From Escherichia coli (GTDB taxonomy: Bacteria > Pseudomonadota > Gammaproteobacteria > Enterobacterales > Enterobacteriaceae), in the NCBI RefSeq assembly GCF_003334355.1, contig NZ_QOWP01000002.1: a stretch of DNA of 64,000 bases, one strand, 5' to 3'. The translations under genes were made by a program, and so were the position numbers. Every line of letters begins with the position of its first letter. The stretch's first letter is position 1. The notes below the pieces were generated by a model. The model was given only the letters and a program-made list of their open reading frames with translations, was not told where the DNA came from and ran no database searches. Positions 18,201 to 18,400 of the stretch are shown one piece after another.

Positions 18201-18400
18201 ACCTGTAGGCCAGATAAGACGCGTTAGTGTCTTATCTGGCATTTGCACCGATTGCCGGATGCGGCGTAAACGCCTTATCCGGCCTACGATTCCCATTATT
18301 TCAACAAATTACATTAAAGTAGGCCAGATAAGACGCGTCAGCGTCGCATCTGGCATTTGCACTGAATGCCGGATGCGGCGTAAACGCCTTATCCGTCCTA
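18201..18400. repeat. REP/BIME cluster between convergent rcsB and rcsC
   Basis: Repeated gtaggccagataagacgcg...gccggatgcggcgtaaacgccttatccg palindromic units; the last unit reaches the rcsC stop codon. Confidence 0.8.

Follow-up and report, generated by a model that had tools for sequence, protein, structure and literature searches.

A BIME-2 between the convergent rcsB and rcsC genes of Escherichia coli: REP hairpins at transcript 3′ ends and a REP tail as the rcsC stop codon

Introduction

REP elements carry at the foot of their hairpin a GTAG tetranucleotide, each of whose four bases is needed for binding and cleavage by the REP-associated transposase TnpA-REP (PMC3479197). Arranged as BIME-2s they are reported to be bound and cleaved by DNA gyrase and to have no IHF site. 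In 3′ UTRs they have been described as dual terminator-stabilisers; genome-wide, REP-flanked genes do not have longer half-lives (bioRxiv 10.64898/2026.03.23.713779). Stem-loops, REPs among them, protect Rho-terminated transcripts, whose 3′ ends are trimmed back to the structure by exonucleases (PMC6061677). Where a REP lies within 15 nt of a stop codon, hindrance of ribosomes during termination and a reduced protein output have been reported (Liang, Rudd and Deutscher 2015, as cited in PMC12306157).

A well described array of this kind is REP325 (naRNA4), located between yjdM and yjdN. Its six units are separated by a spacer of 17 nt; the flanking genes are in tandem, and the distance from the yjdM stop to the first unit is 19 nt. 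Experimentally, REP325 stabilises the upstream mRNA and attenuates read-through in a partly Rho-dependent manner (bioRxiv 10.64898/2026.03.23.713779). Here we describe a related array between rcsB and rcsC, members of the Rcs phosphorelay, which controls capsule, motility and the envelope-stress response and for which the RcsC:RcsB ratio matters in signalling. A literature search found no paper linking rcsC with REPs.

Results

Layout of the rcsB-rcsC cluster

The DNA analysed (the window) is a 64,000-nt stretch of an E. coli contig (NZ_QOWP01000002.1). It is K-12-like, with 100% identity to strain MLI023K1 and 99.8% to K-12 over the 501 nt compared, and window coordinates equal MG1655 coordinates minus 2298629. 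An initial annotation of the sequence had placed a REP cluster overlapping the rcsC stop codon at 18201-18400, between convergent rcsB and rcsC. The cluster is real, although its true span is 18205-18401. The two genes are convergent, and the 199-bp gap between them is filled by four REP units. The features are as follows.

14859-17531, plus strand: rcsD, which runs with rcsB; matches the RefSeq b2216-b2218 set
17548-18198, plus strand: rcsB coding sequence, with a TAA stop at 18196-18198
18205-18240, plus strand: REP1, Z2-type, GTAGG tail toward rcsB, 6 nt after the rcsB stop (stem 10 nt after it)
18241-18253: linker between REP1 and REP2, 13 nt, head-to-head, ATTTGCACCGATT
18254-18287, plus strand: REP2, Y-type, GCCGGATGCGGCGTAAACGCCTTATCCGGCCTAC, an exact match to the Y consensus with a 3′ CCTAC tail
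18288-18318: spacer between REP2 and REP3, 31 nt, tail-to-tail, its first 15 nt being GATTCCCATTATTTC
18319-18354, plus strand: REP3, Z2-type, GTAGG first on the plus strand
18355-18367: linker between REP3 and REP4, 13 nt, head-to-head, ATTTGCACTGAAT
18368-18401, plus strand: REP4, Y-type, ending in CTTATCCGTCCTAC; reverse complement GTAGGACGGATAAGGCGTTTACGCCGCATCCG
18205-18416: tandem array found by TRF, period 114 bp, 1.9 copies, reaching 16 nt into the rcsC coding sequence
18398-21247, minus strand: rcsC coding sequence, 949 aa, C-terminus ...VRKSRDS; matches RefSeq b2218 (2317027-2319876)

The 114-bp repeat therefore consists of a Z2-type REP, a 13-nt linker, a Y-type REP and the 31-nt spacer, with two such units in tandem. 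All four REPs are imperfect palindromes of about 35 nt that conform to the Y or Z2 consensus, have the GTAGG/CCTAC tail at the foot of the hairpin and exist in many genomic copies; the median number of REP-matching places per E. coli genome is 28. In the whole window the REP tail motif has 18 matches, against 0.54 expected from shuffled sequences. The predicted fold of the 251-nt region is far more stable than chance on both strands (z = -9.3 on the plus strand, -6.3 on the minus strand), and the REP1 hairpin in rcsB-sense RNA is predicted at -25.3 kcal/mol. The stems of the two Z2 units (18209-18240 and 18323-18354) read CCAGAT...ATCTGG, where the other Z2 units of the window read CCTGAT...ATCAGG; this is a compensated change, altering both sides of the stem.

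The cluster is a canonical BIME-2. It has alternating Y and Z2 units set head-to-head and tail-to-tail, short head linkers, an l-type spacer and a varying copy number, and in these respects, as in its site between convergent genes and its 13-nt head linkers, it is like known BIME-2s. It is an ordinary and known element, already catalogued in EcoCyc as REP162, under which label it appears in a table of bioRxiv 10.64898/2026.03.23.713779. The middle of the spacer (ATTTCAATGGATTACA in some strains, TTCAATAGATTACAAT in E. albertii) aligns with the tail-to-tail l linkers of the BIME-2s at 138.7 kb and 3012.5 kb of MG1655. We had considered the 31-nt spacer to be unique to this locus. By BLAST it occurs once per genome in 4437 of 5426 genomes, and in up to three places in a few, yet with an l-type BIME linker at its middle it is not wholly locus-specific.

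Searches against Rfam matched both units to naRNA4 on the rcsC-sense strand, the match in each case covering a 77-nt Y-linker-Z2 unit.

18208-18284, minus strand: Rfam RF02564 (naRNA4), unit 1, 80.4 bits over the full-length model (gathering score 59.5)
18322-18398, minus strand: Rfam RF02564 (naRNA4), unit 2, 77.5 bits, the match starting at the G of the rcsC UAG

Other Rfam matches, to plant miRNA families, were far under threshold and reflect only the palindromes. REP162 shares with REP325 the 77-nt unit (Y, 13 nt, Z2), the tandem layout and a constant spacer. It differs in having two units and a 31-nt spacer, in lying between convergent genes and in abutting both stop codons.

A REP tail as the rcsC stop codon

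The initial annotation had proposed that the last REP contributes the 3′ terminus of rcsC, and this is borne out at the level of single bases. Two stop codons lie within REP4.

18398-18400, minus strand: rcsC stop TAG, the reverse complement of the CTA in CCTAC (18397-18401) of REP4
18389-18391, minus strand: backup stop TAA, in frame three codons on (TAG GAC GGA TAA)

The REP4 stem ends at 18397, adjoining the stop codon, so the stem of the palindrome is itself outside rcsC. It is the conserved tail that overlaps the gene by 4 nt, namely the stop codon and a single base of the terminal Ser codon. The usual description of REPs is as wholly extragenic elements (PMC12306157; bioRxiv 10.64898/2026.03.23.713779); REP162 departs from this description in that its terminal tail enters a coding sequence, and because of these 4 nt REP4 is not wholly extragenic. 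The reverse complement of REP4 (GTAGGACGGATAAGGCGTTTACGCCGCATCCG) is identical to the REP that was co-crystallised with TnpA-REP (PMC3479197). Of 5426 complete E. coli genomes, 5419 have an intact junction in which the GTAG tail contains the TAG; the same holds for the other Escherichia with a readable junction.

The frequency of such overlaps was surveyed in the window together with eight MG1655 segments, which add up to 464 kb of K-12 sequence or about 10% of the genome. Of the 68 REP tails in this sample, 11 are no more than 40 nt away from the stop codon that ends an ORF of 100 codons or longer. The TAG lies in a GTAG tail in two of the annotated genes, rcsC and mutT, and the register is the same in both. 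A third apparent overlap (locus L093, position 11406) belonged to an unannotated out-of-frame ORF over ypeC and was discarded as a false positive. Use of a REP tail as a stop codon is therefore a recurrent arrangement and is not unique to rcsC. Extrapolating from two genes in about 10% of the genome, which is very uncertain, GTAG may possibly serve as the stop codon of some 20 E. coli genes. At mutT the TAG (111431-111433) lies in the Y-type GTAG tail of a BIME-2 (MG1655 111430-111630), and on the mutT side, which is the side compared, the stop is followed by Y, linker, Z2, l spacer, Y, linker and Z2. Unlike at rcsC, the spacer there holds no copy of the 3′ end of the gene.

Variation in E. 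coli and relatives

The number of 114-bp units varies among E. coli strains. A one-unit allele has an 85-nt gap and an RcsC ending in SRES (loci L002 and L004), two units are found in the window, MG1655 and ST69, and a three-unit allele has a 313-nt gap (L085). In all of these one-, two- and three-unit examples CCTAC is followed directly by GA(T/A)TCCCGCG. In one further Escherichia locus (L016) the Y REP is largely deleted and the CTAC/TAG is kept. The penultimate rcsC codon (18402-18404) gives ...SRDS in the window and K-12, and ...SRES in the other E. coli strains examined. Only 83 records match the 71-nt junction at 99% identity or more, and the K-12 junction sequence is therefore a minority variant.

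We had entertained the short allele (one unit, two REPs) as ancestral. This was rejected, as two units are already present in E. albertii, with the spacer known from E. coli, in a sequence that ends short of the rcsC junction. For this reason the one-unit strains are probably deletions.

For comparison across species, 80 rcsB loci were collected, 74 of them from outside Escherichia; stop codon counts out of 81 include the window. RcsC is conserved up to ...YAERVRKxR and continues as a free tail of 0-3 residues, which across genera may be G, V, T, A, E, K, ES, EA, DAS or EL. Escherichia loci with a readable junction all end in ES, with TCG TAG G in the REP tail. Genera other than Escherichia, in which the REP-tail stop is lacking, end RcsC in other ways and mostly with TAA. 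TAA is the rcsC stop at 58 of 81 loci, and at 32 of the 74 non-Escherichia loci it closes a run of four or more T. Trabulsiella and Pseudocitrobacter have an RcsC ending in ...RES (TCG TAA) without any REP.

In Salmonella (L022, L025) and Citrobacter (L005, L014) the REP next to rcsC is reversed, with its head toward the gene. There the REP is followed by ATTTTTT and forms an intrinsic terminator for rcsB, and the rcsC TAA is the last three bases of the T-run. RcsC of these genera is one residue shorter than that of E. coli, and the Salmonella stop sits where E. coli has its last Ser codon. This could suggest that the Ser codon of E. coli came with the REP, but the ...RES ends of Trabulsiella and Pseudocitrobacter occur without one. 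In Salmonella, Citrobacter and other Enterobacteriaceae the gap resembles that of E. coli in being short, convergent and with a hairpin against the rcsC stop. A hairpin in this position is thus the norm for the family, and Escherichia has swapped a terminator-type hairpin for a BIME-2 without a U-tract.

Growth of the array

The spacer begins with 15 nt (GATTCCCATTATTTC) that align in register with the terminal 15 nt of rcsC, which in most strains read GATTCCCGCGATTTC; 12 of the 15 positions agree, for which we estimate a chance probability of about 1e-5. The matching segment of rcsC is genuine coding sequence, since it is common to Salmonella. A comparable, independent case was found in locus L037 (MGYG-HGUT-00110, an unrelated enterobacterium; 3239-3490), where a 324-nt rcsB-rcsC gap holds a 79-bp tandem array of 3.2 copies. 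Each unit there consists of a REP-like palindrome (GTAGCCCGGGCAAGGCGTTCACGCCGCCCCCGGG) and a decayed copy of the rcsC 3′ end, giving three pseudo-copies, and the array reaches 12 nt into rcsC. The simplest reading of these sequences is that the arrays would have grown by tandem duplication capturing the end of the gene. The rcsC-like and l-like parts of the spacer share the pentamer ATTTC.

It was also observed that the constant spacer of REP325 (AAATTCCCGCACCCTCC) shares an 8-mer (ATTCCCGC), situated beside the CCTAC tail, with the 3′ coding end of rcsC (18402-18417). The two are alike at 12 of 16 positions, which may be coincidence or shared history.

Transcript 3′ ends and Rho

The initial annotation had suggested that the palindromic element probably acts as a shared terminator and mRNA stabiliser for both genes, to be checked by 3′ end mapping. 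Published maps show that both transcripts do end at REP hairpins.

18203-18204, minus strand: 3′ end of rcsC-sense RNA (Term-seq 2316833, SEnd-seq 2316832), 1-2 nt past the REP1 tail
18245, plus strand: 3′ end of rcsB-sense RNA (SEnd-seq overlap end 2316874), 5 nt past the REP1 hairpin (GGC-AUUUG)
18550 (2317179), plus strand: peak of a Rho termination region antisense to rcsC, Rho score 22, p = 1e-49 (PMC7815308)
18058 (2316687), minus strand: weaker Rho termination region antisense to rcsB, Rho score 2.6 (PMC7815308)
18402-18560, plus strand: C-rich, G-poor stretch antisense to rcsC (C 35%, G 19.5%, C/G ratio 1.8)

The minus-strand end at 2316833 was recorded by Term-seq in two growth conditions; no plus-strand 3′ end was called in the rcsB-rcsC gap in that study (PMC7815308). 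SEnd-seq reports two sites, one at 2316832-2316874 (18203-18245, REP1) in log and stationary phase and another at 2316942-2316985 (18313-18356, REP3) in stationary phase, and labels both (entries 182 and 183) as rcsB:rcsD:rcsC, REP162 (bioRxiv 10.64898/2026.03.23.713779). By these published tables the locus belongs to the SEnd-seq class of bidirectional terminators, and its minus-strand end is confirmed by the separate Term-seq study. The ends flank REP1 and REP3; REP4, which overlaps the stop codon, is not a transcript end. The Term-seq score of the minus-strand end, 40047, seemed large, but this impression was dismissed, as minus-strand scores begin near 23000 and plus-strand scores near 700, and the value is modest for its strand. 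In Supplementary file 1 of PMC7815308 the Term-seq scores differ in scale by strand, so they are not comparable across strands.

A terminator scan of 17900-18700 returned no site with a hairpin and U-tract. The hairpins are followed by AUUUG (3 U) on the plus strand and by A/U-poor sequence on the minus strand. On the plus strand, downstream and upstream reads were 14 and 274 in untreated cells and 276 and 246 with bicyclomycin (PMC7815308); these data are in windows 800 nt wide, and the bicyclomycin signal could partly be new antisense initiation instead of read-through. The missing U-tract site and the full read-through under bicyclomycin rule out an intrinsic terminator. The published tables give, for this locus, both read-through when Rho is inhibited and a precise 3′ end at a stable stem-loop that has no U-tract. 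The C-rich stretch on the plus strand is as would be expected of a Rho loading site. RNA of the minus strand past REP1 is not C-rich and G-poor, and the confinement of this composition to the plus strand matches the weaker minus-strand Rho score. Two further resources were consulted; the TERMITe tables hold no entry for rcsB or rcsC, and the RepRanger sRNA table lists nothing at the rcsB-rcsC locus.

Hairpins at the two stop codons

The rcsC stop lies 0 nt from the nearest hairpin stem and -4 nt from its tail; after the rcsB stop the tail follows at 6 nt and the stem at 10 nt. Both genes are thus within the 15 nt that define the stop-proximal class of REPs, for which stalling, mRNA cleavage and tmRNA tagging have been described; rcsB and rcsC resemble this class in position. 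In the K-12 variant, REP4 alone is predicted to form a weak hairpin in rcsC-sense RNA (-15.4 kcal/mol, z = -1.2). Together, REP4 and REP3 are predicted to form in the same RNA a composite hairpin of 86 nt with a free energy of -45.3 kcal/mol (z = -4.8), in which the rcsC UAG would be base-paired within the basal helix GUAGG:CCUAC.

Discussion

We consider it likely that the observations are explained as a whole by a BIME-2 whose tail serves as the TAG stop of rcsC, with Rho-dependent termination beyond the cluster, trimming back to the REP hairpins and a possible effect on translation through the position of the hairpins near the stops. By this account rcsB and rcsC would both be transcribed into and through the cluster, as the bicyclomycin read-through shows. 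Rho would then terminate transcription past the cluster and within the opposing gene, which the Rho data show at coarse resolution. From there 3′-to-5′ exonucleases would trim the RNA to the REP hairpins; the trimming is taken from the published model and the ends themselves are those mapped. The hairpins would in this way define and protect the steady-state 3′ ends, so that the rcsB mRNA would end just past REP1 and the rcsC mRNA would carry all four REPs in a 3′ UTR of about 195 nt. Lastly, by analogy with other stop-proximal REPs, the hairpins may hinder terminating ribosomes and lower the yield of RcsC and RcsB.

The shared terminator and stabiliser of the initial annotation is accordingly upheld in one part. 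The cluster marks, and probably protects, both mRNA 3′ ends; termination itself is Rho-dependent, and the ends lie at REP1 and REP3 and not at REP4. Since there is no U-tract, and the drop in coverage is gone when Rho is inhibited, the cluster is better called a 3′-end-defining stabiliser. On transcripts terminated by Rho, the REPs most likely serve to block 3′ exonucleases and not as an intrinsic terminator.

It has to be asked whether the ends at REP1 and REP3 are instead true termination sites, at which polymerases coming from either side halt because of the hairpins and of head-on collisions. The authors of the SEnd-seq study class such sites as bidirectional terminators, not processing sites, and list those at REP1 and REP3 as overlapping bidirectional termination sites; 78 REPs lie within 306 such terminators (bioRxiv 10.64898/2026.03.23.713779), and REP1 is a hairpin of -25.3 kcal/mol followed by AUUUG. 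We nevertheless find this unlikely, given that there is no U-tract and the terminator scan was empty, and that with Rho inhibited the downstream coverage equals the upstream (276 against 246). Moreover, Rho dependence could not be detected in constructs with two to four REP325 hairpins; attenuation of transcription, partly through Rho, was seen only with the complete array of 12 hairpins (bioRxiv 10.64898/2026.03.23.713779). Less probable still is an action at the level of the DNA or nucleoid, in which the cluster would be a gyrase target relieving the positive supercoils of the convergent genes, or would give rise to an naRNA4-like RNA that binds HU. Such a role is suggested by analogy, as both units score above the Rfam naRNA4 threshold, the architecture is that of REP325, cleavage of BIME-2s by gyrase in vivo has been reported (Espeli and Boccard 1997) and about 60% of REP elements are found between convergent genes (bioRxiv 10.64898/2026.03.23.713779). 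Against it, REP325/naRNA4 gave no nucleoid compaction or long-range contacts on re-examination in 2026 (bioRxiv 10.64898/2026.03.23.713779), and the overlap with the stop codon would be left unexplained.

The overlap itself may have no function and may have arisen neutrally, by chance, when a REP was inserted or the array grew next to a C-terminal tail that RcsC can do without, and we regard the case for and against this as evenly balanced. The RcsC tail after ...RVRKxR varies freely among genera, and mutT has the same -4 overlap, which makes two such cases among the 10 REP tails that abut a gene in the survey of about 10% of the genome. Strains carry one, two or three units, and locus L016 has lost most of its Y REP and still has the stop. 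On the other hand, the junction is almost invariant in E. coli, and its position falls in a class reported to affect translation. Neutrality of the overlap is in any case compatible with a functional cluster, and it is not a full rival to the trimming and stabilisation of Rho-terminated transcripts that we favour. Within that account, the overlap would probably be a by-product of a REP having settled against the change-tolerant C-terminal tail of RcsC. It would then have become fixed, because any base change in the TAG would both add three residues to RcsC, up to the backup TAA, and alter the GTAG recognised by the REP-associated transposase. A far more ambitious reading, to which we attach very little probability, is that the array grows by capture of the rcsC end, that GTAG doubles as the stop codon and that the hairpin, with one to three units, tunes the dosage of RcsC and RcsB.

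Beyond annotation the locus is of little importance; each of these behaviours is already known from REPs at large. With structure on both stop codons and a copy number that varies among strains, the cluster could in principle shift the RcsC:RcsB ratio. Were dosage tuning to be true, REP arrays would set the Rcs envelope-stress phosphorelay differently from strain to strain. The locus offers a clear natural illustration of a REP tail serving as a stop codon, of REP hairpins marking the ends of Rho-terminated convergent transcripts and of array growth by tandem duplication.

Other REP clusters in the window

Several other REP clusters were seen in the window. A large BIME array at 5985-6400, with at least 8 REP units and a period of about 113 bp, begins 23 nt after the stop of a 170-codon ORF that ends at 5961. 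Further clusters lie at 48531-48733, 41680-41765 and 50150-50187. At 50174-50187, the REP tail and the TAA of a gene that ends on the minus strand at 50193 are 5 nt apart.
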